DNA from: Chitinophaga pinensis
GTDB taxonomy: Bacteria; Bacteroidota; Bacteroidia; UKL13-3
Assembly (NCBI GenBank): GCA_945873755.1
Contig: CAMCEM010000004.1
Location: 1-57,844 of the forward strand
DNA length: 57,844 bases
Reading direction: 5' to 3'
Shown here: piece after piece, positions 7,840-56,144 of the stretch
Layout: every line of letters begins with the position of its first letter
How positions within the stretch are numbered: the stretch's first letter is position 1
The notes under the pieces: generated by a model
The model's database searches: none
Told to the model about the DNA's origin: nothing
Seen by the model: only the letters and a program-made list of their open reading frames with translations
Made by a program: the position numbers and the translations under genes

Positions 7840-7921
7840 GAAATGATTATACTGTATAAATGTTGCAAATTAATATTATTATCGAAAAAAGTTTAATTTT
7901 AAATAAAAACCCAAAAAATAA

Positions 7922-9660: not shown

Positions 9661-9662
9661 AA

Positions 9663-10142: not shown

Positions 10143-10258
10143 TTTTTCGTTACATTTAGATATTTATCTTTGTCAGAGTATTTTGTAGTTTTTATGATAC
10201 ATTTATATTGATTATTTTTATAATCATTTCTGTTAAATTTGTTTTCAAAATTTGAAAA

Positions 10259-10789: not shown

Positions 10790-10870
10790 GTTTTTTTACT
10801 CTATTTGTTTAAAGAAAGAAAAATGAGTATTATATTTAATGTTATTGTATTTAAAACATAAATTTTTTAT

Positions 10871-11974
10871 CTATTTATTAGGCAAATAAGTTATTATCTG
10901 CTTAAAAACTGTTGTTTCGTAAGTTTCCTTTTCTTCTCCTTTAGTTGTGTTCATTATTAACTGTTTGTGCGTTAAGCTAGTCCAATTATTTTGATTATCA
11001 TAGTGAAAATCAAAGGACAGAAAAAGTTTTTTTTCTTCATTGAAATAGCTGACAGATAATAAATTATTGCTGCTATCATATGTTTTTTGAATTCTTCTAG
11101 TTTCTTTTCCTTTTTTAGTTAAGCTACTAATTGTTAGTTCTAAACCTTTCGTGTTGTAAGTTATTATTTTATCTATATATCCATCTGGGCTTTCTTGTCC
11201 AATATAAAAGAATTTTTTAGTATTTGAGTTACTATCGGAACAAATTGTTTCTGAATATAATTTTCCATTCACAAACTTTTTTTTATTTATCTCAACATTA
11301 TTTTTATCGTAAGAAATAATATCTTTTTCAATACGACCACCAGTGTATTTATATTCGCGTAAACTTGTTTCAATTTTACCGACATATTCTCCTTTGTTAT
11401 TATATGTTATTTGGATTTCCCTAGTCCCATATTCTTCACTTATATCTGTTTCAAAAGTTAATTTCCCGAGGTTATTATATTGGTATATAATATTTTTTGT
11501 TGGATAACCATTTTCGTTATAGTAAACTTTAGAAATAACCAAACCTTTATTGTTAAGTTTAGAAATCGTTGCAAAATTAAGATGGTTTGGCTCATCTGCC
11601 ACAACAGTACCTTCTTCTTCAGTAACTTCTTTGTATCTTCCAACCTTAAATCTTTTAACAAATTCTTCAATATTTTCGCAATTACAGCTAAATTCATAAA
11701 TGCTATCCGCTTTATAAATTGTTTTAAACCTTTGTTGTTTTGAACTTCTATAACCCCAATTAAAACTATATAGTTTTTTGCTTTTAATTCTACTTTTGGA
11801 ATCAAACTGCGCATCTTCAATTAGCAATTCCTTTTCTACATTTACTAGCAACCTTTTATAACTACCTATTTGACCCATTAATGGCGGTACATGTTGTAAG
11901 TTACTTATTTGGCAAGCTACTTTAAGGCTGTACAGTATAATAGGTATTATAATTATTAGTTTAGTTGTTTTCAT
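10871..11974 (-). CDS. hypothetical secreted protein with short internal Y-N/D-x-x-G repeats
   Basis: 367 aa with a signal peptide. Recurrent YNNLGK / YNNKGE / YDKNNVE / YNTKGLE / YDSSNNL units. Confidence 0.5.
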   Translation of the reverse strand: MKTTKLIIIIPIILYSLKVACQISNLQHVPPLMGQIGSYKRLLVNVEKELLIEDAQFDSKSRIKSKKLYSFNWGYRSSKQQRFKTIYKADSIYEFSCNCENIEEFVKRFKVGRYKEVTEEEGTVVADEPNHLNFATISKLNNKGLVISKVYYNENGYPTKNIIYQYNNLGKLTFETDISEEYGTREIQITYNNKGEYVGKIETSLREYKYTGGRIEKDIISYDKNNVEINKKKFVNGKLYSETICSDSNSNTKKFFYIGQESPDGYIDKIITYNTKGLELTISSLTKKGKETRRIQKTYDSSNNLLSVSYFNEEKKLFLSFDFHYDNQNNWTSLTHKQLIMNTTKGEEKETYETTVFKQIITYLPNK

Positions 11975-12109
11975 TTAATTAAAATTTAAAACAAAAATAG
12001 TTTTATGCACCATAAATAAAATAGTATTATTTTGTTTAGATTAAGTACTTTTCAAAATTGTTTAAAAACACATTATATTTTTAGCACAATTATTGAATAT
12101 ATTGCTACC

Positions 12110-40939: not shown

Positions 40940-41566
40940 ATGAAAAAGTTACTAATCATTTTTACAATTATTTTAATTGGCAAATTTTCGATAGCAGAAA
41001 ATTGCAAAGTTGAGTTTAATTTTCTACTAAAAAACAAAAATTGGAAACCAACTATTTCATCAATAGTAAATGGAATAATTTATGTAGATGTAGAAAGTGA
41101 AAACGACAGTTTAATAATTCAATTAAATAAAGAAATTAACTGTAATAATACACTTGCAAATGTTTATTTAGATGAAACTAAAGTACCTGTTTCACCAAAA
41201 GGAAATGAAATAAAAACAACTTCAAATGGTGGTTTGTACAAAATTGAAATTATTGGCCCAGGTAGTAGTGAGTGGTTTAAAATATTTGTAAGAGTTACTA
41301 AACCAACTGTTGTAAAAAACACTGTTCCATTAGTTTTAGTTCATATTTACCCAAACCCTGCAACAACTAATTTTTTTGTAGAAAATGCCGCACAAGTAGA
41401 AACAATAAAAATATATGACATAACTGGAGCTGTGGTTTTAGTAGTTGAAAATTCTTTTAGAAAAGATATTTTAGATATTGACATTGCTAAATTACCAGCA
41501 GGTCAGTATTTTTTAGCTTTACAAAACGATAAAACAAAAATTACAAAAAAGTTAGTGAAATTATAA
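40940..41566 (+). CDS. small secreted protein with a T9SS C-terminal sorting domain
   Basis: 208 aa with a signal peptide. IYPNPATTNFFVEN...AGQYFLALQN...KKLVKL. Confidence 0.7.
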   Translation: MKKLLIIFTIILIGKFSIAENCKVEFNFLLKNKNWKPTISSIVNGIIYVDVESENDSLIIQLNKEINCNNTLANVYLDETKVPVSPKGNEIKTTSNGGLYKIEIIGPGSSEWFKIFVRVTKPTVVKNTVPLVLVHIYPNPATTNFFVENAAQVETIKIYDITGAVVLVVENSFRKDILDIDIAKLPAGQYFLALQNDKTKITKKLVKL

Positions 41567-41583: not shown

Positions 41584-41619
41584 AAAAAAGCGCTGAATTT
41601 TTAATTTAGCGCTTTTTTT
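41584..41619 (+). terminator. intrinsic terminator
   Basis: agcgctgaatt / aatttagcgct stem (one mismatch) followed by a T7 run. Confidence 0.65.
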
Positions 41620-41629: not shown

Positions 41630-41825
41630 GCATCCGTCAAAGTCTCGTTGGTGGAAACTATTATTGAGCCTCTGGCTTTTATAATTAATTGTAATTAAAA
41701 ATTATAGTCATTGCCAGAGGCAATTTAATAGTCCTCACCAACCAGAGGTTGGCGAGTGCTATGAAACACCGCGCATCCGCCAACGTCTCGTTGGTGGAAA
41801 CTATTTTGAGCTTCTAGCTCAGCTT
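41630..41825 (+). repeat. repeat family D: two direct ~50 nt copies around an internal palindromic spacer
   Basis: gcatccgtcaaagtctcgttggtggaaactattattgagcctctggc (41630..) aligns with gcatccgccaacgtctcgttggtggaaactattttgagcttctagc (41773..). Between them are gcctctggc/gccagaggc and ccaacc-aga-ggttgg hairpins. Confidence 0.8.
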
Positions 41826-41898
41826 TAACACTACATATTTAAACTTACAGGGCAGACACATAGGTCTGCCCCAACAGGCTGCCCCAACAGGTCAGCCC

Positions 41899-43227
41899 CT
41901 ACGAGGCTTCTTCAATTTTAACTTTAATTTTCTTTAGCTTTTCGTTTTTAACTTTAGCCAATACATCGCGTACTTTTTTACGGTTAATAGAAACATATGA
42001 CGAATGATCTAAAATGGTTATTAAACCTAAGTCCTCTCCTATTAATTCGCCTTTTTTCATAAATAACCCTGCTATGTCGCCTTTGCTAATTTTATCTTTT
42101 TTACCTGCGCTTATGTAAATGCACTCAAAGGTAGGCGGAGGTGGTAGTTTCATTTCTTCGGGAAGTGTTATTTCCTTAAATTCTTTTTTGTGCATATAAA
42201 CAGGCAAAGTTTCATCTTCTGCCAGTATTAGATAAGCCTCTCCATCGGCATGCATTCGAGCTGTGCGCCCATTGCGGTGTGTAAACTCTTCTAAATGAAC
42301 AGGCATTTGGTAATGCACCACATGTTTTATTTCGGGAATATCTAATCCACGGGCAGCCAAGTCGGTTGCTATTAGTACATTGCAAGCACCCCCTCTAAAT
42401 TTAATTAAATTTTTTTCTCTATCAATTTGTTCTAAATCGCCATGAAATACGCCATGTGCAAATCGGTATTTATCCAAAACCGCACTAATTCTGTTTACTG
42501 CATCTTTGTGGTTACAAAACACTAAACAAACTTCTTGGTTAAAACCTGCAATTAAACGCATTAAAGTTTCTACTTTTTCAGTACTTTCTGTTTTTAGTAA
42601 GTTAAGCTTCAGTTTCGATTCTACTTCTTGGTGCTGGTAATCCAATGTTTCAACACTTAAAAAAGGTAAAAACTTAGGCAATTCTGCAAGTCTAGTGGCT
42701 GATGTTAAAATATGGCTTTGGGTTTTATTTAATGAAAAGAAAATGGTTTTTAACTGTTCGTGAAAACCCATTTGTAACGATTTATCAAACTCATCTAAAA
42801 CCACATAATGAATGGTTGAAGGGTCGAACGATTGGCGTTCAATATGATCGGCCAAGCGGCCAGGTGTGCCAATAATTACTGCGGGTGCTTCGCTTAAACT
42901 GTTCTGTTCAATTTTAAATGAATGACCACCATAGCAGCAAGTGGCTTTAAAATTGGTTTTCATGGCTTTAAAAACAGTTTCTATTTGTATAGAAAGCTCG
43001 CGCGATGGAGCAACAATTAAAGCTTGAACTCCTTTTTTGTCAGCTTGTAAAGTATTAAGCACTGGTATCAAAAACGACAATGTTTTACCCGAACCCGTTG
43101 GTGCAATAACCATTAAATTTTTACTGCTTGCCGCCTTTTCAATTACCTCCTCTTGCATTTGGTTAAAATTTTCAATTCCTAAATTTGATAATATAGTTGC
43201 GTAAGTGGTATTTAAATTATTTTGCAT
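41899..43227 (-). CDS. DEAD-box-type ATP-dependent RNA helicase with a DbpA-like C-terminal RNA-binding domain
   Basis: APTGSGKT, VVLDEFD (motif II), TSAT, HRNGRTAR. The C-terminus GKKDKISKGDIAGLF...VSINRKK is DbpA-like. Confidence 0.85.
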   Translation of the reverse strand: MQNNLNTTYATILSNLGIENFNQMQEEVIEKAASSKNLMVIAPTGSGKTLSFLIPVLNTLQADKKGVQALIVAPSRELSIQIETVFKAMKTNFKATCCYGGHSFKIEQNSLSEAPAVIIGTPGRLADHIERQSFDPSTIHYVVLDEFDKSLQMGFHEQLKTIFFSLNKTQSHILTSATRLAELPKFLPFLSVETLDYQHQEVESKLKLNLLKTESTEKVETLMRLIAGFNQEVCLVFCNHKDAVNRISAVLDKYRFAHGVFHGDLEQIDREKNLIKFRGGACNVLIATDLAARGLDIPEIKHVVHYQMPVHLEEFTHRNGRTARMHADGEAYLILAEDETLPVYMHKKEFKEITLPEEMKLPPPPTFECIYISAGKKDKISKGDIAGLFMKKGELIGEDLGLITILDHSSYVSINRKKVRDVLAKVKNEKLKKIKVKIEEAS

Positions 43228-43326
43228 GGCGCGAAGGTAAGGGAATAAGGTGTTGATTGGTTTAATTGTTGATTTTTGACCGTTATTGGTATCCTTAATC
43301 TGCTGCTTTTAATTTATAAGCCAAAC

Positions 43327-43443
43327 AAAAAACCGTCTGACGCCTTCCATACTCAATTAATTTCCTCAATCGTCTGACGGTGTGTTAATAAAAAACCGTC
43401 TGACGCATTTCCTGCTCAATTCCTTTGCCCAATCGTCTGACGG
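43327..43443 (-). repeat. 63 bp tandem duplication (x2) of a terminator-like unit; four copies of the palindromic motif CGTC-N-GACG
   Basis: Units lie at 43327..43380 and 43390..43443. On the minus strand each reads CCGTCAGACG-loop-GCGTCAGACGG-TTTTTT. The motif occurs at 43334, 43371, 43397 and 43434. Confidence 0.8.
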
Positions 43444-43446
43444 TAG

Positions 43447-44067
43447 TTACTTTAACCTATAAGCCAAACCAATAACCCAAGTATTATTTAACCCTCCGGT
43501 ATTGTTACTTATGTTTAATATACCAGTTTGATATTGCCCATATAGCGCCCATTTTTTATAACATATAGTAGCACTTAAAATTCCGCCCATATCCAAATTG
43601 TTATATTTATGCTCTTGTTCGTGGCTCAGGTAATAATGCTGTGGGTTTGTAAATGCTGAAAACAAATAACCGCCATAAGCACCGGCACCTAATAATATAT
43701 TAGTGGGGCCGCTAAATTGGTGATTATAATTTAATACCACAGGCAATTGCACATAATGCAAATACACATTTTCAGTGTAGGAAAGAACTTTTTCGCCTAC
43801 TGCATTTGTGTAAATTACCTCTCTGGCTGAACCTTTGCGCACATAACTTAAACCAACATGGGTGTAAAATTTAGCATTCCATTTAGTTTGTAAATGAGTA
43901 CCCATTTCAAGCCCTGTTAAGGCTTGGTTAAATATGCTATTATTACTTAAATTATTTTGGGTAACACCCATCTTTACAAAAAGATGGGTGTTTTTAAAAA
44001 GGCTGTCAAGCTTTTGCGCTTGGGCTTGCATGGCAATAAAGCAGCTAAGTATAAATAAGGGTTTCAT
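43447..44067 (-). CDS. small outer-membrane beta-barrel (porin-family) protein
   Basis: 206 aa; signal peptide ...AMQAQAQ. Alternating aromatic/Gly strands; C-terminal ...VIGLAYRLK. Confidence 0.6.
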   Translation of the reverse strand: MKPLFILSCFIAMQAQAQKLDSLFKNTHLFVKMGVTQNNLSNNSIFNQALTGLEMGTHLQTKWNAKFYTHVGLSYVRKGSAREVIYTNAVGEKVLSYTENVYLHYVQLPVVLNYNHQFSGPTNILLGAGAYGGYLFSAFTNPQHYYLSHEQEHKYNNLDMGGILSATICYKKWALYGQYQTGILNISNNTGGLNNTWVIGLAYRLK

Positions 44068-44068
44068 G

Positions 44069-46249
44069 CTATTTGGCTATAATAAGTTTTTTGGTTTCGG
44101 AGTAACCATTACTAGCATTTAATGTAACTAAATATACTCCAGCAGCCAAATCTTGTGTGTTAATAGTTTCTTGATTATTACCTGTAATATTAACACTTTT
44201 AACAAAAGTACCTGCTAAATTATAAATATTAATACTTTCACCTATTGCTCCGTTTAATTGGAATAGTACAGTTGCAATATCATTGGCAGGGTTAGGGTAA
44301 ATTTTAAAGGTGATTTGATGCTGTTGTTGCTTGTTTTTTAATTCGTTTAGATTTTGTGGTGGAGAAGTTTTAGAAAGTGAAATATTTCCTTTATACTTAC
44401 TATTTAATCCGCTACAAAATGTTCTTATTTCGTCTTCATTTGTTACCAAGCCATGATTATCATAACTGCAAGGCGGGTTATCAGCTAAATCAAAAACTTG
44501 AAGTGTTACTTCTCCTCCAATAGGTATTATTTCGTATTCGGTAGAAATTGTTATTTCTTCTCCAGCTTCGTAAATACTAGAGCCATTAAGAATATTCATA
44601 TTACCATCTTTAAATGTAATTAATTTTTTTGCGTATGTATTAGTAGTAGATGTAATTGATACAGAATTAAAATTTAATTCTGGTTGATGAATTGATGCCA
44701 TGGTGTAACGGTATGCACTATAACCTTGAGTAAAGGTATTGAAATTATACTCTTCACTACCACCAATAATACTAGATTCGATTGGATAGGTAAACATGTG
44801 AACCGCTCTGTTTGGACTTTCATCTTTACCCAACTCTTTCGACTCTAAAACTAACATAACGCATAATTCAAGCTCTTTAGGTAAAATAACATTACTTGTT
44901 CTTACAACCGCAGGCTCAAAATCTATAGTATTAGTTGAAATAGAAGTAAAATCAATTAATGTAACCAATTTTTCAATACATGATGCTGGTAAATATGGAG
45001 ATTGCAAATAGTATTCTGTTCCATTTGGCAAATCTTTTGAATGTCTAATTTCCCAATTTAAATTTTCAATGTATTTTGCATTTGATGGTAATTGATGTTT
45101 CATACGCAATGCAAATAATACACGAGTATTATCCATGTTTGGCTTAATGGCAGGGTTTATACTGTATTTAATATCATTTTCTAATCTTAAGCCAATTTCA
45201 TGTCTATCAGTTATTTTTTCTCTATCAATCCCATTATTTTCACCTTCTACCGGCCCTCCGCCTAGCGAAAATACACGTGTATTACTAAATTTATAATAAA
45301 CTTGAATTTTTGGCTTGTAATACAGTGCAAATACACCCAAATGCTCGTTATACAATGGGTATTTGGGGGTGTTAATCAAATCAAATGTGTTAGTATTTAA
45401 ACTACCAGGATTTCCAAATATTGTTCTTTCTACCCTATCATGGTCGGTAAGTGTTCCCTCTATTCTCATTTCACCTTGAATTACGCTTGGCATACCCGGC
45501 ATTTTTGCTTCTTCTTTTAAGCGACTTGCATAATAATCGGTATATTTACCCGCAGCCATACCGCCATAAATAACAGCTTCAAGAATATCTTTACTTTTAG
45601 TAGCTCCCAAGGCTGTTCCACCTATCAATATTGATTTCATTTTAGCAGCTAAAAAGGCTTTGCCACCTGTGGCAATGTATGCCCCTACTGTTAGTGCTGT
45701 GCTCCAAGCTTTTATTTTATCTGCATCTTGCTTTTCCATTTTGTAGGCTTTCATCCGCTTGTCGTAATCGGCTGCTAGAGTGTTTACATTTTTATAAATA
45801 AGTGCCCCAGCCTTTATTTCGTTTATATCGTTTTTATAATCCATAGAACTTAAAAAAGTAGGATCTAGTACAGCAGTGTTTAGGCCTCCCTTTAAATAAT
45901 CAATTGGGGTACTAGTACCAATAAATCTACCATATAGTTTTATGTCTGATGTTTCCACAAATTCTACCAAAACTTCTATTCGGCTATCAAAATCACAAAC
46001 ACAAGGGTCATAAGCCATTTTAAAATCGCCATAAAACCACCTATTATAGGAATTAGGATGTGTGGAACTAGATACCAGCTCGGTTACAGTTGTATATTGA
46101 TCCAAAGCTTGAGCCTTGGCAGTATTGTTGCTAAATGTAATTGCCTTGTTAAAGCCGTCTTGAAATTTCAAAATAACATTGGCTACATCGTAACCTACTA
46201 TATTAGCCATGGTAAACACCCTAAGGGTAGATTCGAATTTATTGTACAA
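44069..46249 (-). CDS. large T9SS-CTD protein lacking its own signal peptide (probable C-terminal part of a split cargo gene)
   Basis: 726 aa with a TTG start in the track. CTD: KIYPNPANDIATV...AGVYLVTLNASNGYSETKKLIIAK. Same frame as 46292..46684, separated only by a TGA and 14 open codons. Confidence 0.7.
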   Translation of the reverse strand: MYNKFESTLRVFTMANIVGYDVANVILKFQDGFNKAITFSNNTAKAQALDQYTTVTELVSSSTHPNSYNRWFYGDFKMAYDPCVCDFDSRIEVLVEFVETSDIKLYGRFIGTSTPIDYLKGGLNTAVLDPTFLSSMDYKNDINEIKAGALIYKNVNTLAADYDKRMKAYKMEKQDADKIKAWSTALTVGAYIATGGKAFLAAKMKSILIGGTALGATKSKDILEAVIYGGMAAGKYTDYYASRLKEEAKMPGMPSVIQGEMRIEGTLTDHDRVERTIFGNPGSLNTNTFDLINTPKYPLYNEHLGVFALYYKPKIQVYYKFSNTRVFSLGGGPVEGENNGIDREKITDRHEIGLRLENDIKYSINPAIKPNMDNTRVLFALRMKHQLPSNAKYIENLNWEIRHSKDLPNGTEYYLQSPYLPASCIEKLVTLIDFTSISTNTIDFEPAVVRTSNVILPKELELCVMLVLESKELGKDESPNRAVHMFTYPIESSIIGGSEEYNFNTFTQGYSAYRYTMASIHQPELNFNSVSITSTTNTYAKKLITFKDGNMNILNGSSIYEAGEEITISTEYEIIPIGGEVTLQVFDLADNPPCSYDNHGLVTNEDEIRTFCSGLNSKYKGNISLSKTSPPQNLNELKNKQQQHQITFKIYPNPANDIATVLFQLNGAIGESINIYNLAGTFVKSVNITGNNQETINTQDLAAGVYLVTLNASNGYSETKKLIIAK

Positions 46250-46291
46250 TATAAAACATGGAAACTGTGGTCTTGATGATTGGTTTACAGG

Positions 46292-46684
46292 TCAATTATC
46301 TAATCCTTTACCAAAACCACGGTATATTAACTCCCAACCGTCTTGTGGGCTAAAATCAATTACTGAAGTATCGTATGGAGAAGGTTTAAACGGAAAAAAA
46401 TTTTGCGCCCAAGGATTAGGAACTGCATTATTTAAGCCATCAAAAGGAAATCCTAAAAAATCGGCTTCTGTTAAAGCAGTTTGTGGGTCATCTACCATCC
46501 AGTTAAATGTATTGCGCATATCTGGTCTTTGGGTATTTTTATTTTGAGGCGGCAAATTGCCCCTTTGGTCTCCAGTATTGGTTGGTGGAGGGTAAGTAGC
46601 AATAATTTCATCATCGCATTGTGCCCACGTGGGGGTATTAATGCCAACTAGTAACATCAATACCAATAATTTTAAATTTTTCAT
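46292..46684 (-). CDS. signal-peptide-bearing 130 aa ORF (probable N-terminal part of the split cargo gene)
   Basis: The start was trimmed to MKNLKLLVLMLLVGINTPTWAQ (ATG at 46684). Ends ...GWELIYRGFGKGLDN-TGA (46294..46292). Confidence 0.6.
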   Translation of the reverse strand: MKNLKLLVLMLLVGINTPTWAQCDDEIIATYPPPTNTGDQRGNLPPQNKNTQRPDMRNTFNWMVDDPQTALTEADFLGFPFDGLNNAVPNPWAQNFFPFKPSPYDTSVIDFSPQDGWELIYRGFGKGLDN

Positions 46685-46700
46685 ATTTGTAAATTTTAGT

Positions 46701-47486
46701 TTATTTAATTTTAGTCCCTCTAAATAGGTGTAAGGTACTGTCTCTACTCCATTGTTTATATTGCACATATATAGAATCTGTATTATCTGGCAGTTTACAA
46801 ATAACATCAAACAAATTGCACCGCGGTGTCATTACGCCATTGGGAAAAAAAGTACGTACATTTACCTCCCAAGGTGTGTATTGTCTATAACCCAATGTCC
46901 CTCCAGATATATAGGCAGTACAATCATTAAAACCAGTAAAAGTATTATACTCAAAGCCACTTGGACTAACGTATTTACTTATTTGAACGGTTACAGGTAG
47001 CTTTTCATTTTTGGTAGATATACCTTTAAATATGCCATACATAGGCATAATATTGGTATCGTTTCTATCCACAAAATATAACATCCTTTCAATTGTGTCT
47101 AACCCATCATCAAATGGAAAACATAATTTGTTTGGTTTTTTTTGTACAATTAGCCTAATGCGCTTTGGTGTTCTGCTTGCACTAAAATCAATGGTAAACG
47201 ATTTGCCATAGCGAGGTTCTGTCTCAGTTCCAATATTCCAAGTGTAGCTTTGTGCCGTAGAATCTAATGCAGTAAATCTTACAGAATTCATAATACTTGT
47301 ATCAGTATCATAATATTTCCAAAAGTTATCTAAACGGGTATCATCCGAATATTCTTCCATAACAAAAGTAGCTTTTATTTCCTTTTGTCCATCGCATGGG
47401 TTTATTGGTGCAATTTCCTCTTTGGGGTTGCAGGCAAAGGGTATAATAAGTAAGGCTGTTATTAGCTTTAAGAATGTATTTTTCAT
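46701..47486 (-). CDS. hypothetical lipoprotein
   Basis: 261 aa; lipobox-like LLIIPFAC. No recognised domain. Confidence 0.55.
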   Translation of the reverse strand: MKNTFLKLITALLIIPFACNPKEEIAPINPCDGQKEIKATFVMEEYSDDTRLDNFWKYYDTDTSIMNSVRFTALDSTAQSYTWNIGTETEPRYGKSFTIDFSASRTPKRIRLIVQKKPNKLCFPFDDGLDTIERMLYFVDRNDTNIMPMYGIFKGISTKNEKLPVTVQISKYVSPSGFEYNTFTGFNDCTAYISGGTLGYRQYTPWEVNVRTFFPNGVMTPRCNLFDVICKLPDNTDSIYVQYKQWSRDSTLHLFRGTKIK

Positions 47487-47496
47487 AACAAAAAAA

Positions 47497-48258
47497 TTAT
47501 TCGGCTAATTTAGCTTTTAAAGCATCAATTTCTTTTTGTTGTTGTAAAATATATAAAGTTAATTCTTCTACTTTTTCTAATAATATTACTTGCATTTCGC
47601 CAACATCAATTTGTTTATTGTTAGCTTCTACTTCGGCTAGGCTTGGCACATTTGGCAAGTGGTGGTATTTTGCTATAAATGTTTCTAATTCTGGTAAAGT
47701 TTTTAGTTTATAATTTTTATCAAAAACATAATCAGCAAATGGGTTTTGAAGTGTAACTATTACTTTTCTGGCAGATAAATAACCGTTGGCATTTACTTTA
47801 AATAAATCTTGTGTGGCATTTTTAAAAAGAATTTGTTCTTCGGTAATGGTAAAAAAGTTGCGGTTATTACTATTTATAAAAAAACCAATAGAAGGGTGAA
47901 TAATACCATTGGTATTTAAAGTCATGCTTCCGGCAGTTTGCACTTTAAAAGCATCTCCAGGGCTTGTTCCAGTTCTTTTTAAGCTTAACGTACCTCCATT
48001 TACAATTAAATTACCATAAACATCTGCTCTTCCATGGTCCACACTAAAGTTTAAATTAAAGGCAGAACCTGTATTTGTAAATACATTAAACATTGCTGGT
48101 TGAGGTGGGCTTCCAGGTAACCCTGATACCACCACTCCAGCAATATTTACTTGGTTACTGGTACTTAAAATACCGCTTGTAGGGCCAGTCCATTGGGCTT
48201 GGCTTTTAAAAATAAAGGTTAATAACCCTAGGCTAAGTAATAATAATTTTCTTTTCAT
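47497..48258 (-). CDS. secreted protein with a tail-fibre-like C-terminal coiled-coil module
   Basis: 253 aa; signal peptide ...FKSQAQ; Gly/Asn-rich beta-strand body. C-terminus FADYVFDKNYKLKTLPELETFIAKYHHLPNVPSLAEVE...LLEKVEELTLYILQQQKEIDALKAKLAE. Confidence 0.55.
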   Translation of the reverse strand: MKRKLLLLSLGLLTFIFKSQAQWTGPTSGILSTSNQVNIAGVVVSGLPGSPPQPAMFNVFTNTGSAFNLNFSVDHGRADVYGNLIVNGGTLSLKRTGTSPGDAFKVQTAGSMTLNTNGIIHPSIGFFINSNNRNFFTITEEQILFKNATQDLFKVNANGYLSARKVIVTLQNPFADYVFDKNYKLKTLPELETFIAKYHHLPNVPSLAEVEANNKQIDVGEMQVILLEKVEELTLYILQQQKEIDALKAKLAE

Positions 48259-48422
48259 TGTTAGTTGTTTTTTAGTTTTATTTTTTTTTAGTTATTTGAT
48301 AAAGCAAACATTAAAACTAAAAATACAATTTCCAACAAAAACTACCTGTCTATTTTGGACAGTATGTTTTTATAGGTAATTTAGTTTATTATTTATACAA
48401 TTGCTTTTCTTTATGTTTTAAA

Positions 48423-48785
48423 ATGAAAAACCAAATAATTGTAAAAAAGTTAGGAGTTGGAATAAGGGCGTTGCGTAAAATAAGGGGTGTAAAGGTGGCT
48501 GTTTTGGCCAAAAAGCTTGATTTTGATAGCGTAGAAGCATATTTAAAACTAGAAAGAGGCGAAAGAAAAGAAATTGGTATTGTGCAACTCTTAATTATTT
48601 GCGAAGAGTTAAATTGTTCAATATCTAATATTTTTATTTTATCGGGTTTAGCTGATGACCTGTTTAGTAAAGACATTACCACTTGGAGTCAATTTCTTGA
48701 TTCGCTAGAAGATGTACCTTTTGATAGAAAAGAAAAAATTTTGGAACTATTAAATACTTTAAATTTATCGCCAAATGTTACATAG
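48423..48785 (+). CDS. XRE-family helix-turn-helix transcriptional regulator
   Basis: 120 aa; LGVGIRALRKIRGVKVAVLAKKLDFDSVEAYLKLERGERK...LLIICEELNCSISNIF. Divergent from the 43447..48258 cluster. Confidence 0.65.
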   Translation: MKNQIIVKKLGVGIRALRKIRGVKVAVLAKKLDFDSVEAYLKLERGERKEIGIVQLLIICEELNCSISNIFILSGLADDLFSKDITTWSQFLDSLEDVPFDRKEKILELLNTLNLSPNVT

Positions 48786-48860
48786 GGTTAATTAATTTCA
48801 TAAGTTAAATATTGACAACATAAAATTATTTATTTAATGTTGTTGCATATTAATTGAAAC

Positions 48861-49283
48861 ATGAAAGACATTACAAAAACTTATACCAATAACGAAATTA
48901 CCATAGTTTGGAAATCTTCCATGTGTATTCACTCTCGAAATTGTTTTAATGGCTTAGGGCAAGTATTTAATCCTGCTGAACGCCCTTGGATAAAACCAGA
49001 AAACGCAAAAACAGAAACTTTAATGTCACAAATAAACAAGTGCCCTAGTGGTGCGTTGAGTTATTACAAGAACGATGAAGCAAAAACCGAAAACATAGAG
49101 GTAGAAACAATTGCAGAAATATCAGAAAACGGACCTTTGTTGCTATATGGAAACATTACTGTTAAACACAATAATGGAACTGTAGAACAAAAAAACAAAG
49201 TGACTGCTTTTTGCAGGTGCGGTGCATCAAACAATAAACCTTACTGCGATGGAACGCACCGAAAAATTGACTTTAAAGGGTAA
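48861..49283 (+). CDS. iron-sulfur protein: divergent 4Fe-4S mono-cluster domain plus CDGSH zinc-finger-type domain
   Basis: C-terminal CRCGASNNKPYCDGTH (CDGSH motif). N-terminal Cys ligands CIHSRNC...CPSGAL. Confidence 0.7.
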   Translation: MKDITKTYTNNEITIVWKSSMCIHSRNCFNGLGQVFNPAERPWIKPENAKTETLMSQINKCPSGALSYYKNDEAKTENIEVETIAEISENGPLLLYGNITVKHNNGTVEQKNKVTAFCRCGASNNKPYCDGTHRKIDFKG

Positions 49284-49292
49284 TAAGGTGTT

Positions 49293-50201
49293 TTGGAAAA
49301 TAAAAAACACTTAATTAGCATAGTTGGGCCAACCGCAGTAGGAAAAACAGCAATGGCCATTCAATTGGCAAAGCATTTTAATACCGTTATTATTTCAGCC
49401 GATAGTCGTCAGTTTTACAAAGAAATAAGCATTGGCACAGCCAAACCCAGTTTGGAAGAATTAAATCTAGTACCACATTACTTTATTAATAATAAAAGTG
49501 TATCCGAAACCTATTCAGCAGGTGATTTTGAAAAAGATACTTTGTTAAAACTACAAGAATTATTTAAAGAAAATGATATCGTTATTTTAGTTGGTGGAAG
49601 CGGTTTATATATAAAAGCACTTTGGGATGGATTGGATGATTTGCCTAAAGAAAACATTGCTTTGCGTAATGAATTACATAACGAATTTAAAACTAATGGA
49701 ATAGAATATTTACAAAACAGACTTTTTAAAACTAATCCCGAAAAGTTGGGAAGTTTAGATGCAATGAATCCGCAAAGATTGATGCGTGCTATTGAAATAG
49801 CTGAGCTGAGCGAATCCAATGTTTTTATTCCTCAAAAAGCGATTCGCCCTTTCCAAAACATAAAAATATGTTTGAATAAAGAAAGGGAAATACTCTACAA
49901 CGATATTAATAATAGGGTTGATGGAATGATAGCGAATGGATTAATAAATGAGTGCGAAAAAATGAGTCTGTTTAGAGATAAATATGCTTTAAAAACGGTT
50001 GGGTATACTGAAATATTTGACTATTTCGATAATAAACATTCCCTGCAAAAAGCCATTGAACTAATAAAACAGCACACTCGAAACTATGCAAAAAGGCAAA
50101 TTACATGGTTTAAGCGAGAAGAAGACCTTGAATGGTTTGAGCCAAATGAAACAGAAAAAATAATAGATTTTGTAAATAAAAAACTAGGTAAAAAAGTCTG
50201 A
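49293..50201 (+). CDS. miaA: tRNA dimethylallyltransferase
   Basis: TTG start; P-loop GPTAVGKT; SADSRQFYKEISIGTAKP; 302 aa. Confidence 0.9.
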   Translation: MENKKHLISIVGPTAVGKTAMAIQLAKHFNTVIISADSRQFYKEISIGTAKPSLEELNLVPHYFINNKSVSETYSAGDFEKDTLLKLQELFKENDIVILVGGSGLYIKALWDGLDDLPKENIALRNELHNEFKTNGIEYLQNRLFKTNPEKLGSLDAMNPQRLMRAIEIAELSESNVFIPQKAIRPFQNIKICLNKEREILYNDINNRVDGMIANGLINECEKMSLFRDKYALKTVGYTEIFDYFDNKHSLQKAIELIKQHTRNYAKRQITWFKREEDLEWFEPNETEKIIDFVNKKLGKKV

Positions 50202-50250
50202 AATTTTATTAGTTTTGCGCTTCAAAAAAATAAATTATCTTTAATTAAAT

Positions 50251-50985
50251 ATGCTCGAATTTTTAAGCACTCCTGAGGCCTGGTTAAGTTTATTTACACT
50301 TACCATTTTAGAAATTGTATTAGGTGTTGATAATATTATATTTATATCAATAATAACTAGTAAACTTCCAAAGCAACAACAACTAAAAGGCCGCAGATTA
50401 GGTTTGTTTTTAGCTTTATTTATCCGAATTGTTTTATTGGCTTTTATAAATAAAATTGTACACGATTTAACTGACGAAATAATAAATATTTTAGGTATTG
50501 GATTTAGCTGGAGAGATATAATTTTATTATCGGGAGGAGTATTTTTATTATACAAAAGTGGAATAGAAATATATGAAAAGCTTGAAAAAGTAGAAAATGA
50601 AATTTCATCCAAATCATACAAATCGTTTTGGAATGTGGTTATGCAAGTTATAGTAATAGATATAGTATTTTCATTCGATAGTATTTTAACAGCCGTTGCC
50701 ATTTCTGACCACATAGAAATTATGGTTATAGCGGTTATTATATCTATGGTTGTTATGATGATATTTGCTCAAAAAGTTGGAGATTTTATTAACGACAATC
50801 CTTCTATGAAAATATTGGCATTGGCATTTTTAGTAATGATAGGTGGCTTATTAACTGTAGAAGCTTTTGATGTTCATGTAGAAAAATCGTACATATATTT
50901 TGCATTGGCATTTAGTATTTTAGTTGAAATGTTAAATTTAAGGTATCGTAAAAACATACAAAGCGGTAAAATTAAACATCATTAA
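50251..50985 (+). CDS. TerC-family integral membrane protein
   Basis: 244 aa, multi-TM; LEIVLGVDNIIFISI and FSFDSILTAVAIS motifs. Confidence 0.8.
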   Translation: MLEFLSTPEAWLSLFTLTILEIVLGVDNIIFISIITSKLPKQQQLKGRRLGLFLALFIRIVLLAFINKIVHDLTDEIINILGIGFSWRDIILLSGGVFLLYKSGIEIYEKLEKVENEISSKSYKSFWNVVMQVIVIDIVFSFDSILTAVAISDHIEIMVIAVIISMVVMMIFAQKVGDFINDNPSMKILALAFLVMIGGLLTVEAFDVHVEKSYIYFALAFSILVEMLNLRYRKNIQSGKIKHH

Positions 50986-51005
50986 TATTTCTTTAAATTA
51001 AATTC

Positions 51006-51863
51006 ATGCAATTACTAAACGGTAACCTAGTTTCAAAACAAATAAAACTAGAAATAAAAAAAGAAGTAGATGAACTAATTGCTAAAGGAATTAAACGACC
51101 GCATTTAGCAGCAATTTTAGTAGGAAACGATGGCGCAAGTATAACCTATGTTGCTGCAAAAGAAAAAGATTGCAAAGAAGTTGGATTTGATTCAACAGTG
51201 CTGAAATTTAATGAATCAATTACAGAAGCTGAATTGCTCAATGAAGTTGAGAAAATAAATGCAAATACCGAAATAGATGGACTAATAGTTCAACTGCCTT
51301 TACCAAAACATATTAACGAAAAAAAAATAACTGAAACCATAAGTTGGAAAAAAGATGTAGATGGCTTTCATCCATACAATGTAGGGTTAATGTTTAAAGG
51401 CTTGCCGTGTTTTTTACCTGCAACTCCCTATGGCGTTATTAAGTTATTAGAACATTATAATATTGATACAACAGGTAAAAACTGTGTGGTTATTGGTAGA
51501 AGCGATATTGTAGGTAAACCTATGAGCGCCTTAATGTTAAATAAAAACTGTACTGTTACCATTTGCCACAGTAAAACTGTTGATATGAGTTCATTTACTC
51601 AAAAAGCTGATATTATTATTGCTGCAGTTGGGATTCCCAATTATTTAAAAGCTGAAATGATAAAAGAAGGTGCTATTGTAATTGATGTTGGCATTACAAG
51701 GGTTAACGATGAATCGGAAAAAGGATATAAGCTTATTGGAGATGTAGACTTTGAAAATGTATCGAAAAAAGCCGCTTTTATAACTCCTGTTCCTGGAGGT
51801 GTTGGACCTATGACAAGGGTTGCTTTGTTACTAAACACATTACTTTCAGTAAAAACAAATTAA
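51006..51863 (+). CDS. folD: bifunctional methylenetetrahydrofolate dehydrogenase/cyclohydrolase
   Basis: 285 aa; GLIVQLPLP, DVDGFHP, VVIGRSDIVGKP, PVPGGVGPMT. Confidence 0.95.
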   Translation: MQLLNGNLVSKQIKLEIKKEVDELIAKGIKRPHLAAILVGNDGASITYVAAKEKDCKEVGFDSTVLKFNESITEAELLNEVEKINANTEIDGLIVQLPLPKHINEKKITETISWKKDVDGFHPYNVGLMFKGLPCFLPATPYGVIKLLEHYNIDTTGKNCVVIGRSDIVGKPMSALMLNKNCTVTICHSKTVDMSSFTQKADIIIAAVGIPNYLKAEMIKEGAIVIDVGITRVNDESEKGYKLIGDVDFENVSKKAAFITPVPGGVGPMTRVALLLNTLLSVKTN

Positions 51864-51870
51864 TAATATT

Positions 51871-53070
51871 TTGAAAAAACTTTCTTTAGTTCTTTTATTG
51901 CTTCCTTCTATTCTTTTTAGTCAAGTTGTACCCAAATACGGGAACGATACTTTATTAGACATTGGAACTTGGAATGTTGAATGGTTTGGCGATTTAACAA
52001 ATGGACCTAGCGATGAAACGCAACAGTTTGATAATGTAAAAAATATTATTAATAAAACTGATATTGATATTTGGGGGATTGAAGAAATGAGTAATACTAC
52101 TAGCTTTAACTCTTTAATTTCAGCTTTGCCACTTTACGGTGGAGTTAACAGCACATTTTCGTTAACGCAAAAAATGAGTTTGCTTTATAAAAAAAGTATG
52201 TTTAACTTTATTAGTGCTGAACAAATTTTAACAACAAGTAATTACGACTTTGCAAGCCGACCACCTTTATTGGTAAAGCTTTCAACCAAAGGCGACAGTA
52301 TAAATATTGACACATTATTTATTATAGTTGTTCATTTAAAAGCCAATAGCGAATCGAACTCGACAGGAAAATTAGAATCGTATAATAGAAGAAAAAGAGC
52401 TGCAGATGCTTTAAAGATATATATTGAAAATACTTTATTGAATAAAAAATATATAGTGCTTGGTGATTGGAACGACCGATTGGATTTTTCAATTCATAAT
52501 GGAATTGATACAACGCCTTTTAAACAATTGTTAAATGCCAATTATAATTTTATAACTAAACCATTAGCAGACGCAGGTAAAAGAAGTTACGCCTTCTCTG
52601 ATGGTTTTATAGACCATATAATGGTTTCACCAAGAATTGATTCTTTTTATGTAAAACAAAGTGCAACGGTACTCGATAATTTAGGTCAGTTCGTTAACAA
52701 TTACAGCAGCACTACTTCCGATCATTATCCTGTATTTGGTAGGTTTTTATTCAATAAAATTAAATATACCACTCCTATTGATACTATTCCAACCGATACT
52801 ATAAAAGATACATCAAGAACAAGTATTAGTTATAGTGTAAAAGCTATTAATAATTTTACTGTATATCCAAATCCTTTTGAAAATTATTTTACAATAAAAA
52901 CAGAAAATTTAAATAACGATTTAGTTGAAATTTACTCCCCAATTGGTAATTTGATTTACTCTAAATTATTAAACAAAAATGAAACCGAAATAAATTTAAA
53001 AGATTTTCAAACCGGATTATATATTATTTGTTTTAAAGGAAAATATTATAAAATATTAAAAAACCAATGA
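51871..53070 (+). CDS. endonuclease/exonuclease/phosphatase (EEP) family protein with a T9SS C-terminal sorting domain
   Basis: TTG start and signal peptide. GTWNVEWFG, VVHLKA, LGDWND, SDHYPV. CTD: VYPNPFENYFTIK...GLYIICF. Confidence 0.8.
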   Translation: MKKLSLVLLLLPSILFSQVVPKYGNDTLLDIGTWNVEWFGDLTNGPSDETQQFDNVKNIINKTDIDIWGIEEMSNTTSFNSLISALPLYGGVNSTFSLTQKMSLLYKKSMFNFISAEQILTTSNYDFASRPPLLVKLSTKGDSINIDTLFIIVVHLKANSESNSTGKLESYNRRKRAADALKIYIENTLLNKKYIVLGDWNDRLDFSIHNGIDTTPFKQLLNANYNFITKPLADAGKRSYAFSDGFIDHIMVSPRIDSFYVKQSATVLDNLGQFVNNYSSTTSDHYPVFGRFLFNKIKYTTPIDTIPTDTIKDTSRTSISYSVKAINNFTVYPNPFENYFTIKTENLNNDLVEIYSPIGNLIYSKLLNKNETEINLKDFQTGLYIICFKGKYYKILKNQ

Positions 53071-53100
53071 AAGTTGGTTTTTGTAAACCATTCATTTTTT
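53066..53100 (+). terminator. compound hairpin plus T-run between convergent genes
   Basis: aatgaa-ag-ttggttt-ttgt-aaacca-ttcatt followed by tttttt. Confidence 0.55.
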
Positions 53101-53105
53101 ATAAA

Positions 53106-54395
53106 TTAGTTTTTCTTTGGAGTAACTTTCAAAATTACTTCTTCAATTTTAGCACTGCTCGATTTTTGAATAATAAATTCAAATTGATCAATATTTAACT
53201 TTTCACCTTCTTGTGGAATGTCTTCATGATTGGCAGTGATAAAACCGCCTAAAGTATTGTATTCTCCTTCTGGTATATCAAGTTCGTATTTGGTGTTTAA
53301 ATGATAAATTTCTAATCTCCCAGAAAAAAGGTATTCGTTTTCGCCAATTACTTTTTCGGTTAACGATTCAATGTCGTGTTCATCGTCTATTTCTCCAAAA
53401 ATTTCTTCCATTACATCTTCAATAGTAACAATACCAGCTGTTCCGCCAAGTTCATTAACAACTAAAGCAATACTTTTTCTGGTTTTACTAAATCTATTCA
53501 AAACATCCATAACCGAAGTTGTTGCAGGAACAATTTCTATTGGAAACACAATTTCTTTAATTGTTTCTACTTTTTTAAATATTTCTTTTTGATGCACATA
53601 ACCAATAATATTATCAGATGTTCCACCATAAACCAATATTTTAGACAAACCAGTTTGAACAAATTTATCGTACAGTGCTTCGGGCGTTTCAGTAATATCT
53701 ATTAATTCTAAATCAGTTCTTGGAGTCATGCAATCACGTACCTTCAAGCTCGAAAAATCTAATGCATTTTTAAACATTTCGGTGTCTACTTCTACATCAT
53801 CTTCCAGGTCGTTATCGTTTACTTGATTGATGTAATCATCTAAATCAATTTTTGAAAAAACAGGTGTGGTTTCAGTATATTTTATTTTTAAAAATGCATT
53901 TAAAATAAATTTAGAAAGCCAAATAATAACATGAACTATTGGCCAAAAAATATAATAAAATATAAGAAAAGGTAATGCTAATACTTGTAAAACTAAATCA
54001 GGATTTATGCGAAATAAAACCTTAGGTAAAAACTCGGCAGTAAATAAAACTATTAATGTGGAGATTATGGTTTGAGCTAATAAAAGTAAGAATTTATGTT
54101 CGGCAAAATAAGGCGAAACACCCAGTAAAAAAGGGTCAAGAATTTTTGCCATGTAAATACCATAAATAACTAAACCAATGTTGTTGCCAACAAGAGTAGT
54201 ACTTATAAACTTTGATGGATTATTTACAAAATTAGATAAAATATTTGCAGTAACACTTCCTTGTTTACTTTTTAATTCTATTAAAAGTTTATTGGAAGAA
54301 ATAAAAGCAATTTCGGTTCCTGCAAAAAATGCTGAAAATAAAATACTTAATAAAATTATAACCGAGTTGCTATCCATTGTTTTATAATAGTGCAA
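53106..54395 (-). CDS. CNNM/DUF21-CBS-CorC_HlyC family membrane protein (GldE-like)
   Basis: 429 aa: N-terminal four TM segments (DUF21), then a CBS pair, then a C-terminal CorC/HlyC transporter-associated domain. The true start may be the MDSNS Met 6 codons in. Confidence 0.75.
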   Translation of the reverse strand: MHYYKTMDSNSVIILLSILFSAFFAGTEIAFISSNKLLIELKSKQGSVTANILSNFVNNPSKFISTTLVGNNIGLVIYGIYMAKILDPFLLGVSPYFAEHKFLLLLAQTIISTLIVLFTAEFLPKVLFRINPDLVLQVLALPFLIFYYIFWPIVHVIIWLSKFILNAFLKIKYTETTPVFSKIDLDDYINQVNDNDLEDDVEVDTEMFKNALDFSSLKVRDCMTPRTDLELIDITETPEALYDKFVQTGLSKILVYGGTSDNIIGYVHQKEIFKKVETIKEIVFPIEIVPATTSVMDVLNRFSKTRKSIALVVNELGGTAGIVTIEDVMEEIFGEIDDEHDIESLTEKVIGENEYLFSGRLEIYHLNTKYELDIPEGEYNTLGGFITANHEDIPQEGEKLNIDQFEFIIQKSSSAKIEEVILKVTPKKN

Positions 54396-54463
54396 TTATA
54401 ATAAAAATAGAAATAAGAATAGCAGTTTAAAAATTGCTTTTTAAACATATTGATTGTATAAAA

Positions 54464-55165
54464 CTATTCGGAAAACTTATATCCAACTCCTTTTACAGTG
54501 CCTAATAAATCATCTCCTATTTTTTCTCTGATTTTTCTAATATGAACATCAATAGTTCTATCACCAACAATCACTTCATCGCCCCACACTTTTTCTAAAA
54601 TACTTTCTCTTTTAAATACTTTTCCTGGCTTACTTGCTAATAAATAAAGTAATTCAAACTCTTTGCGAGCTAATTGTATTTTTTCTTTGCCTCTGTAAAC
54701 TAAAAAGGTTTCTCTATCAATAATTAAACCTTTAACATTTAGTTTTATATTTTCAACTTCATTTTCGGAAGACGAACCTTTATCTTTTCTTCGTAAAATT
54801 GCTGAAATACGAGTTAATAATAATTTTGGTTTTATAGGCTTTGCAATATAATCATCAGCACCAGCATCAAAGCCTGCAAGTTCGCTGTATTCCTCTGCCC
54901 TTGCAGTTAAAAAAACAACAAAAGAACTATTAGTTAATGGGTTTGATTTTAATTGTTGACAAGCTTGAATACCATCCATCTGCGGCATCATTACATCCAT
55001 TAATATTAAATCAGGCTTAATTTTTTTTGCTTGTTCAATGGCTTCTAGGCCATTGTTAGCTAAATAAACATCGTAACCTTCTTTTTTTAAATTATATTCA
55101 ATAAACTCTTGAATATCTTTCTCATCATCCACAACTAAAACTTTATATTGTTTTTTGTCTTTCAT
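54464..55165 (-). CDS. OmpR/PhoB-type response regulator
   Basis: Receiver domain VLVVDDEKDI...LILMDVMMPQMDG...LTAR. C-terminal winged helix ...RTIDVHIRKIREKI...VKGVGYKF. Confidence 0.85.
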   Translation of the reverse strand: MKDKKQYKVLVVDDEKDIQEFIEYNLKKEGYDVYLANNGLEAIEQAKKIKPDLILMDVMMPQMDGIQACQQLKSNPLTNSSFVVFLTARAEEYSELAGFDAGADDYIAKPIKPKLLLTRISAILRRKDKGSSSENEVENIKLNVKGLIIDRETFLVYRGKEKIQLARKEFELLYLLASKPGKVFKRESILEKVWGDEVIVGDRTIDVHIRKIREKIGDDLLGTVKGVGYKFSE

Positions 55166-55241
55166 ATCAAGCGATATTATTTTTTTTCAATTGCAATATT
55201 AGTTATATTAATGTTAGTTAATTATTAACTTTAAAGGTATT

Positions 55242-56141
55242 TTATTTTAAAATAATTTGCTTAAAATCTAATGCATAGCCTGTAAATGAGCCAATAGCTC
55301 CTTTTACATTTGAATTTACTGCACCAGGAGTGGCAAATGGCCCAGTATTATTGTCGGCTCTTCCAAATGATTGCCAAAATAAAAACTCTTTTCTGCCAAT
55401 GTGCGAAAAGTAAATATTCAGTGTATCGTTTTGATTAAAGGGACTAAAAAACTCATAAGGCCTTGTGCCATTATTTAAATATTGGTCATCGAAAGTTCTA
55501 AACGAATTACATGCACCCCATCCAAATAAAATTGAATCGGGACTAACATTTACTGCCATTCTGTAATTATTATTTTCTGGTCCATCGTAAAACCAAAATT
55601 TAAAAAATGCCCTGTCAACAGTATCGTTTTCACGTTTAGGTTCTATCCTATATTCAAAACTATCAATTGGAATTAGTTTTGGAATAAATGTATTTGAAGT
55701 AATAATTTTAGCTCCGTTGGCAATTGATATTTCTAATTTATAAGGTGTATTTAATTTACCAACTAAATCAATCGGATTCATGTATACACCAGAAAAAGGT
55801 CCTAAAATACTATCGAGTGCAGGAATTAATTTTGAAATAGTATCAACTGAATATAATTTAATTCTGTCAGCAATATTGTAAATGGTATCTTTTCCAATAA
55901 TAATTCCCGGAGTTATGTAAACTTCTGCATCTTTTACTCCATTTAGCGATAAATCAGGCTTAAAATAATCGATTGTAGTGCTAATAAAAACATAGTTTAA
56001 CAGTGGAAAACGTGAGTTAATACTTGCTTCTACCACATACTGCGGAGTGCTTGGTGGCAAATCAATGTCAATTTCTTTTTCGCAAGCAATAACTAAAACA
56101 ATTGCAATAAATAGAATGGTTAAGTTTTTAATTTTTTTCAT
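55242..56141 (-). CDS. DUF4249-like lipoprotein (partner of the upstream TonB-dependent receptor)
   Basis: 299 aa; lipoprotein signal ...VIAC. It sits 3 nt after the receptor stop, which is the usual DUF4249 arrangement. Confidence 0.6.
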   Translation of the reverse strand: MKKIKNLTILFIAIVLVIACEKEIDIDLPPSTPQYVVEASINSRFPLLNYVFISTTIDYFKPDLSLNGVKDAEVYITPGIIIGKDTIYNIADRIKLYSVDTISKLIPALDSILGPFSGVYMNPIDLVGKLNTPYKLEISIANGAKIITSNTFIPKLIPIDSFEYRIEPKRENDTVDRAFFKFWFYDGPENNNYRMAVNVSPDSILFGWGACNSFRTFDDQYLNNGTRPYEFFSPFNQNDTLNIYFSHIGRKEFLFWQSFGRADNNTGPFATPGAVNSNVKGAIGSFTGYALDFKQIILK

Positions 56142-56144
56142 TTT

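Follow-up and report, generated by a model that had tools for sequence, protein, structure and literature searches.

Here we describe an envelope gene module built around a type IX secretion system (T9SS) cargo gene, located in a 57,844-nt stretch of Chitinophaga pinensis DNA (assembly GCA_945873755.1, contig CAMCEM010000004.1), the whole of which we refer to as the window. The conserved core of this module is two to three genes, a lipoprotein gene adjoining the cargo gene, with a gene for a fibre-like secreted protein in front; in the window these are accompanied by a small outer-membrane β-barrel gene and a divergent XRE-type helix–turn–helix (HTH) gene. Our preferred but tentative reading, held with slightly less than even confidence, is that the module builds a T9SS-dependent, strain-variable cell-surface complex with a conserved fibre scaffold. 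Many T9SS cargo proteins exist, but to our knowledge few are known in dedicated multi-protein assemblies. We class the module as a T9SS cargo operon with dedicated outer-membrane accessories. The module is widespread, and beyond the sorting domain and the barrel it has no Pfam or NCBIfam match.

We compiled about 45 distinct related loci (numbered L001, L005 and so on) from the genomic contexts of fibre and cargo homologues and from a scan of one genome per species. These loci come from Chitinophagia, Cytophagia, Flavobacteriia and other Bacteroidota, and include two cultured strains, Agaribacillus aureus BMA12, which has fibre, lipoprotein and cargo genes, and Chitinophaga rupis DSM 21039, which has lipoprotein and cargo genes. 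Hidden Markov models of the four protein families, run on all open reading frames (ORFs) of the loci, placed a lipoprotein homologue directly beside the cargo gene in about 34 of the 41 evaluable loci and a fibre homologue in front in about 26 of 35. A preliminary description of this DNA, made from its letters alone, had likened the five-gene cluster to a self-contained surface or secreted-effector module rather than housekeeping. The loci bear out its self-contained character: the fibre, lipoprotein and cargo genes are co-localised, not scattered, in dozens of Bacteroidota genomes, between unrelated housekeeping genes that differ from locus to locus, and the module proteins themselves matched no housekeeping family or fold. 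The five-gene architecture held in part. The fibre–lipoprotein–cargo arrangement recurs, but the barrel is restricted to the window's clade and L003, L045, L047 and L050, and the divergent XRE gene to the window's clade, L048 and L051; eight further loci have small ORFs running divergently upstream of them, but these do not encode HTH proteins.

Three distant fibre homologues chosen at random (L050, L051 and L052) all head a T9SS-cargo operon, and in L050 and L052 this operon holds the window's cargo family. L050 repeats the fibre–lipoprotein–cargo–barrel order of the window and continues with a second lipoprotein–cargo pair, and in L052 the T9SS cargo gene directly follows the fibre gene. The genes 3′ of the fibre in L051 match none of the lipoprotein, cargo and barrel profiles; there (5441–12181) a 33%-identical fibre, with a divergent 120-amino-acid HTH_3 gene, heads a different operon, whose products include several barrel-like proteins and a 710-amino-acid cargo; the sorting domain of this cargo is CHU_C-like (type B). 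More than one kind of T9SS module may thus be led by the fibre gene.

The features of the module in the window are as follows.

43447–44067, minus strand: gene for a small outer-membrane β-barrel, 206 amino acids, with a Sec signal and a PF13568 match
44069–46684, minus strand: T9SS cargo gene of 871 codons with one in-frame stop
44078–44302, minus strand: type A C-terminal T9SS sorting domain (CTD) of the cargo (PF18962, TIGR04183)
46292–46294, minus strand: in-frame TGA at cargo codon 131, from homologue and metagenome comparison
46701–47486, minus strand: lipoprotein gene, 261 amino acids, with lipobox Cys19 followed by N-P-K-E-E
47497–48258, minus strand: gene for the fibre-like secreted protein, 253 amino acids, with a Sec signal and Gln at +1
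48259–48422, no strand: AT-rich divergent spacer with the dyad CTGTC-N7-GACAG, a candidate promoter/operator
48423–48785, plus strand: divergent XRE/Cro-C1-like HTH gene, 120 amino acids, with weak HTH matches
43324–43444, minus strand: two tandem 58-nt repeats with a period of 63, 3′ of the barrel gene

The ORF coordinates, gaps of 1–42 nt, 164-nt spacer, dyad and duplicated repeats given in the preliminary description were all reproduced from the ORF list and the sequence; visual inspection served to identify the signal peptides and the lipobox. The gaps between the minus-strand genes are 1, 16 and 10 nt, the 42 nt being the distance between two cargo ORFs.

Comparison of the window with its close relatives L005 and L007 shows that closely related strains exchange a lipoprotein–cargo–barrel cassette, with breakpoints that fall in the leader of the lipoprotein and at, or close to, the repeats or the CTD. 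Nucleotide identity to these loci is 98% over 47352–56257 (8.9 kb) and about 96% over 41769–43450, falls to 55–80% across the barrel gene and can no longer be detected over the cargo and mature lipoprotein. At the protein level, identity is 97% for the fibre, 93% for the XRE protein, 65% for the barrel, 35–40% for the lipoprotein and 24% for the cargo. Synonymous divergence (dS) of the barrel gene from that of L005 reaches 1.47, as against 0.09–0.14 for the flanking fibre and helicase genes (helicase 0.14). The first roughly 45 lipoprotein codons (47352–47486) belong to the conserved flank, and an RNA contig of another sample departs from the window exactly at 47352. At the other end of the cassette, the CTD is 74% identical (92% at the nucleotide level) to that of L001, the rest of whose cargo is 28% identical. 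Because the CTD is common to these otherwise dissimilar cargo genes, the breakpoints are placed in the conserved leader and tail segments, and the CTD itself serves as a recombination anchor.

A similar decoupling of fibre from cassette separates L034 from L038 (fibre 72%, lipoprotein 20% and cargo 19% identical) and recurs in L020/L032. Across 136 locus pairs, lipoprotein and cargo identity are correlated (Spearman 0.28), and fibre identity is correlated with neither. The ratio of non-synonymous to synonymous substitution rates (dN/dS) is 0.15–0.25 for the module genes, and 0.16–0.23 within an allele class, so that these genes are under purifying selection; gene-wide positive selection was not seen (dN/dS about 0.2). 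The cassette diversity consists of old allele classes shuffled by recombination and does not stem from rapid point mutation. In a strain from another metagenome run (X1; X2 and X4 below are further runs), which carries the same cargo allele, 412 nt inside the barrel gene (43537–43948) are unlike the window at equal length, which suggests mosaic recombination within the barrel too.

Further genes stand within the cassette or beside it in close relatives. Between cargo and barrel, L001 (12705–13230), L005 (13831–14287) and L007 (8142–8598) hold a 58-amino-acid gene and a partner gene, which encodes a PIN domain in L001 and a truncated product of 97–107 amino acids with no PIN call in L005 and L007; L001 also has AbiEii and DUF6922 genes beside its XRE gene (6491–7367). 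The window has neither the PIN-type pair nor AbiEii/DUF6922, and its cargo–barrel gap is 1 nt.

The preliminary description had called the cargo split, and two ORFs are indeed present (44069–46249, 726 amino acids, and 46292–46810, with an ATG at 46684). They share a reading frame, and a single TGA, at 46292–46294, stands between them, so that they make up one gene with a nonsense codon. Intact homologues of 847–871 amino acids cover the stop position, and the closest of these (89% identical) has Gly there. The X1 strain is about 99% identical around this site (two differences in 301 bases, 46150–46450) and has C at plus-strand base 46294, where the window has A, giving GGA (Gly) at codon 131; lake-metagenome contigs of X2 and X4 match the window over 46111–46383 with no difference, TGA included. 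Because X1 has GGA and both X2 and X4 have TGA, the TGA at codon 131 is a real, segregating nonsense allele in lake populations. Given the Gly codon of the near-identical X1 strain, the cargo gene must have been functional until recently. The stop cuts the signal peptide (MKNLKLLVLMLLVGINTPTWA/Q) off from the CTD, which intact homologues carry on one polypeptide with their signal peptide; the cargo is therefore probably no longer exported in this genome, and the module, with its cargo gene nonsense-mutated, is probably defective here.

We considered two other origins for the TGA and rejected both. Recoding or an alternative genetic code does not fit a codon that ends 4 of the 37 long ORFs of the window and is GGA in a near-identical strain; an assembly error does not fit the same allele in contigs of two other metagenomes.

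Cargo genes are repeatedly inactivated in nature: 10 of the roughly 45 loci have disrupted cargo genes with independent lesions. The window, L001 and L015 carry nonsense codons, whereas the gene is frameshifted or split in L005, L047, L018, L023, L026, L029 and L041; some of the frameshifts could be assembly errors (the window lesion is verified). The lipoprotein is mostly intact where the cargo is broken, though that of L001 contains an in-frame TAA (8774–9592). The barrel gene of L003 (12617–13258) is split into 138 and 65 amino acids. Homopolymer-slippage phase variation was rejected as a general cause of the cargo lesions; a long tract (A8) occurs in L041 alone, and elsewhere the lesion is either a nonsense substitution or a frameshift within a short run.

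These patterns would also suit a weapon, which is the main rival to the surface complex. On such an account the cargo is a T9SS-exported, strain-specific antibacterial or pore-forming effector, from which the lipoprotein protects its own cell, the barrel is perhaps a resistant receptor allele, as at BSAP loci, and the fibre does the targeting. Exchange of lipoprotein, cargo and barrel as a unit between near-identical strains would suit this, as would the loss of cargo with the lipoprotein usually intact, the extra lipoprotein copies in relatives (L005/L007 have two and L023 has three, and there are further ones in L034, L035 and L050), the toxin–antitoxin and Abi genes inserted in relatives' loci, and the presence, between two long strands of the cargo, of an insert that is Gly/Ala-rich and in part hydrophobic. 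We nevertheless consider a toxin unlikely. Pfam, NCBIfam, PADLOC, PDB sequence searches and Foldseek revealed no toxin, MACPF or enzyme domain, and the hydrophobic insert is not kept in distant cargo members. Cargo divergence (24–25% identity) runs the full length of the protein with core motifs kept, rather than swapping a C-terminal toxin tip on a conserved carrier. The lipoprotein, at about 260 amino acids, upstream of the cargo and with a surface-export-type signal, would be unusual as an immunity gene, and the literature searched yielded no account of a T9SS–fibre–lipoprotein module or of a T9SS toxin–immunity pair like it. Of two marks of polymorphic toxins, a recognisable toxin domain was thus not found and a co-varying partner gene is present (the rho of 0.28 given above), and the suggestion in the preliminary description of a secreted effector finds no domain-level support.

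A related possibility, to which we assign a still lower probability, is T9SS-dependent strain discrimination or antagonism, in which the fibre would hold or target an allele-specific effector and the lipoprotein and barrel would protect or identify self. If so, the effector could be membrane-inserting through its Gly/Ala-rich insert, and cassette exchange and effector loss would amount to an arms race among freshwater Bacteroidota.

The cargo family is recognisable in databases through its CTD, which scores 56.9 bits against PF18962 (cut-off 27; E 2.6e-15) and 50.5 bits against TIGR04183 (cut-off 23; E 1.5e-13). The rest is Pfam-dark and marked by the motifs DGWEL, ILYNK, AYDPCVC and YP.YNE.LGVFAL; searched without the CTD, the family comprises 782 representative clusters (50% identity, E <= 1e-3). 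We modelled an intact homologue (P0123; predicted template-modelling score 0.72), obtaining β-sandwich domains, a short β-helix, the CTD and, between two 20-residue strands, the Gly/Ala-rich insert as a low-confidence helical region. The modelled CTD superposes on 8glk_D with a template-modelling (TM) score of 0.83. A Foldseek search of the whole model against the PDB returned the CTD and generic β-sandwiches (cohesin, arrestin and mu-homology) and no MACPF, aerolysin or enzyme fold; in PDB sequence searches with single proteins and profiles the CTD alone matched, the tail-fibre and PKD-domain hits being non-significant.

The window encodes other CTD proteins, and L050 has a gldN gene close to its module. 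At 40940–41566 (plus strand) the window encodes a 208-amino-acid protein whose sole recognisable domain is a type A T9SS sorting domain, with a counterpart at the same position in L001; a further protein with a CTD match is encoded at 33914–35932 (minus strand). The 399-amino-acid ORF at 51871–53070 (plus strand) has counterparts in L001 and L005 that carry Exo_endo_phos and Por_Secre_tail domains, and is probably a T9SS-secreted nuclease or phosphatase.

The fibre gene, from which a homology query returned 2808 hits, encodes a protein whose model (predicted local distance difference test score, pLDDT, 84) has a β-rich shaft and three C-terminal helices; this three-helix domain is conserved (about residues 159–253, nt 47500–47784). 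The fibre and 18 homologues have no Pfam match, and the fibre has none in NCBIfam, PHROG or PADLOC either. Against BFVD the model finds mostly tail fibres with intramolecular-chaperone or Peptidase_S74 domains (E 1.3e-4 to 1e-2), and in L048 the fibre slot is occupied by a protein with a true Peptidase_S74 domain (PF13884). The window fibre itself has neither a PF13884 match nor the Ser-Asp-x-x-x-Lys cleavage motif. The description of this protein as tail-fibre-like thus depends on weak-to-moderate structural matches and not on sequence, and its resemblance to phage tail fibres with a C-terminal chaperone domain is tentative.

That the best structural matches are phage tail fibres might also be explained if the cluster were what is left of a prophage or tailocin tail-fibre module, or if unrelated envelope genes had come together by chance. 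This is very improbable, and neighbourhood conservation largely refutes it: the arrangement, with its T9SS sorting domain and lipobox, is kept in more than 40 genomes. Furthermore, no other phage genes were seen among those called in relatives' loci, the HTH protein is the only one with a PHROGs match, and dN/dS is about 0.2.

The lipoprotein likewise has no match in Pfam, NCBIfam, PHROG or PADLOC, and none of 41 family members matches Pfam, pilin families (FimA/Mfa) included. The lipobox Cys19 is invariant among these 41 members, further cysteines are conserved, and the N-terminal half is conserved and the C-terminal half variable. The window's lipobox, P-F-A-C, is slightly atypical, and from its Cys the protein reads C-N-P-K-E-E; at least two acidic residues fall within the six positions after the Cys in 20 of 26 pattern-parsed members, the CNPKEE group having been picked out by eye. 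In Bacteroidota, lipoproteins are exported to the surface by a signal K-(D/E)2 or Q-A-(D/E)2 just after the Cys (PMC5080379). The K-E-E of the window lipoprotein fits this signal, and surface exposure is predicted. The barrel matches PF13568 (OMP_b-brl_2) at 47.5 bits (cut-off 27) over profile positions 3–174 of 175. This is its sole match, and the cargo CTD is of type A, so the two do not form a cargo–partner pair of the PorP/SprF kind. The XRE protein matches HTH_3 weakly (20.0 bits, below the cut-off of 23; E 7e-4), with further weak matches to HTH_26, phrog_8 (E 1e-4) and PADLOC HTH_VI (E 1e-4).

With domains such as these, the module could be an accessory set for binding nutrients or substrates, in which a surface lipoprotein is paired with a T9SS-secreted binding or degrading protein, much as surface glycan-binding lipoproteins cooperate with secreted enzymes. 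Carbohydrate-binding proteins commonly contain domains of the β-sandwich, β-helix and weakly PKD-like kinds seen here, tail-fibre-like proteins that bear S74 chaperones often act on polysaccharides, and some loci adjoin glycoside hydrolase or TonB-dependent receptor genes. We give this account little credence: no catalytic or carbohydrate-binding module family was matched, the flanks are not consistently SusC/D or carbohydrate-active enzyme genes, and a nutrient system would not usually show cassette swapping between strains or such frequent gene inactivation.

How a T9SS-dependent surface complex with a fibre scaffold might be assembled can be outlined as follows. The four minus-strand genes would be transcribed together from the conserved 164-nt spacer as a single operon, which the divergent XRE protein may control via the dyad. 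All four products have predicted Sec signals. The lipoprotein would undergo acylation at Cys19, its K-E-E export signal would cause it to be flipped onto the outer face, and the barrel would insert into the outer membrane. By virtue of its type A CTD, the cargo would cross the outer membrane via the T9SS, to be surface-retained or released. The fibre would trimerise by its C-terminal helical domain, like phage tail fibres with intramolecular chaperones, serving as the conserved scaffold for lipoprotein, cargo and barrel as allele-matched partners.

The full 164-nt spacer is a candidate promoter/operator region conserved above the genes on both sides: relatives with flanking genes of about 84% nucleotide identity retain 94–100% identity in the spacer. 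The dyad (ctgtc-N7-gacag) lies at 48346–48362 and is, as a 5-bp dyad by itself, not significant; the L048 spacer has another inverted repeat, of 10 bp, unlike that of the window. Contigs from metatranscriptomes include the fibre gene's 5′ end with 17 nt upstream and span the fibre–lipoprotein junction, lending weak support to expression of the fibre gene and its co-transcription with the lipoprotein gene.

Several points weigh against this proposal. The interaction and surface location of the four proteins are predictions, and co-varying cassettes, extra lipoprotein copies and repeated cargo loss suit a toxin–immunity system equally well. The fibre model matches only phage fibres in the PDB, every hit being non-significant (E > 0.05), and its BFVD matches, with probabilities of up to 0.99, have TM scores below 0.3; an hhalign comparison of the fibre with the S74 protein of L048 gave 31% probability, over the last helix only. 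The fibre carries a Sec signal only, leaving its crossing of the outer membrane unexplained. The resemblance of the N-terminal half of the lipoprotein to PKD is non-significant (E 0.095), and the RNA evidence consists of assembled contigs of mixed strains that may include DNA. Beyond the four readings (surface complex, toxin, substrate binding and phage remnant), we leave the remaining probability to other functions.

Comparison with known systems places the module among, and apart from, several of them. In Flavobacterium johnsoniae, sprCDBF-type operons combine type B CTD cargo with PorP/SprF barrels. As in these operons, the window's cargo gene stands amid dedicated accessory envelope genes, with a small outer-membrane barrel gene directly downstream. 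In contrast to them, its CTD is of type A (TIGR04183) and its barrel PF13568, the cargo of about 870 amino acids is unrelated to SprB, the barrel occurs only in some lineages, and the accessories, a tail-fibre-like protein and a surface-type lipoprotein, are of unnamed families. The Mfa1 fimbriae of Porphyromonas gingivalis comprise lipoprotein pilins and the T9SS-dependent Mfa5; there too a lipoprotein and a CTD-bearing protein are co-encoded, and the products form one surface appendage, but the window lipoprotein has no FimA/Mfa match, the cargo has no von Willebrand domain and a fibre gene is present. The fibre as modelled resembles Peptidase_S74 fibres (endosialidase, the T5 L-shaped fibre) in its β-rich shaft of variable length and conserved C-terminal helical domain; its Foldseek matches are mostly such proteins, and a genuine S74 protein fills its slot in L048. 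Unlike them, it is Sec-signalled and encoded in a cellular T9SS operon without phage genes.

Polymorphic toxin and antagonism loci of Bacteroidota, represented by TANFOR toxins (PMC7073777) and BSAPs (PMC12853789), resemble the module in having strain-variable cassettes beside conserved genes and co-varying neighbours; the adjacent outer-membrane barrel varies with the secreted protein, and the extra partner copies resemble orphan copies. They differ from it in that the window module has no TANFOR, MACPF or toxin domain, its variation extends along the whole cargo rather than a swapped tip, and its partner gene lies upstream and encodes a product predicted to face outwards.

Cassette exchange behind a conserved fibre, repeated cargo knockout and a segregating nonsense allele may be signs of conflict between organisms, and phage or grazer pressure and cell–cell or strain recognition are candidates for the selective agent. 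Whether as a surface complex or as an instrument of antagonism, the module would, if either reading is right, represent a new class of T9SS-dependent surface structure or weapon, and would also explain a common ‘hypothetical’ operon of environmental genomes.

The left edge of the variable region is marked by the duplicated repeats, which are terminator-like hairpins. The two copies (43324–43381 and 43387–43444) are 84% identical, and both end in CGTCAGACGGTTTTT. Their stem, ACCGTCAGACG...CGTCAGACGG, is followed by T6 and encloses a long loop in both copies; the folding energy of each 58-nt repeat is about −15 kcal/mol (z −1.7 to −2.3). A simple terminator scan makes no call at the repeats, and an Rfam search of the whole window gave no informative match. 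Related repeats are also found in L001, L005 and L007. Further to the left, a 16-bp near-perfect inverted repeat between convergent genes (41584–41618) resembles a bidirectional terminator, and two 33-nt direct repeats stand 143 nt apart at 41630–41805, with related copies in relatives.

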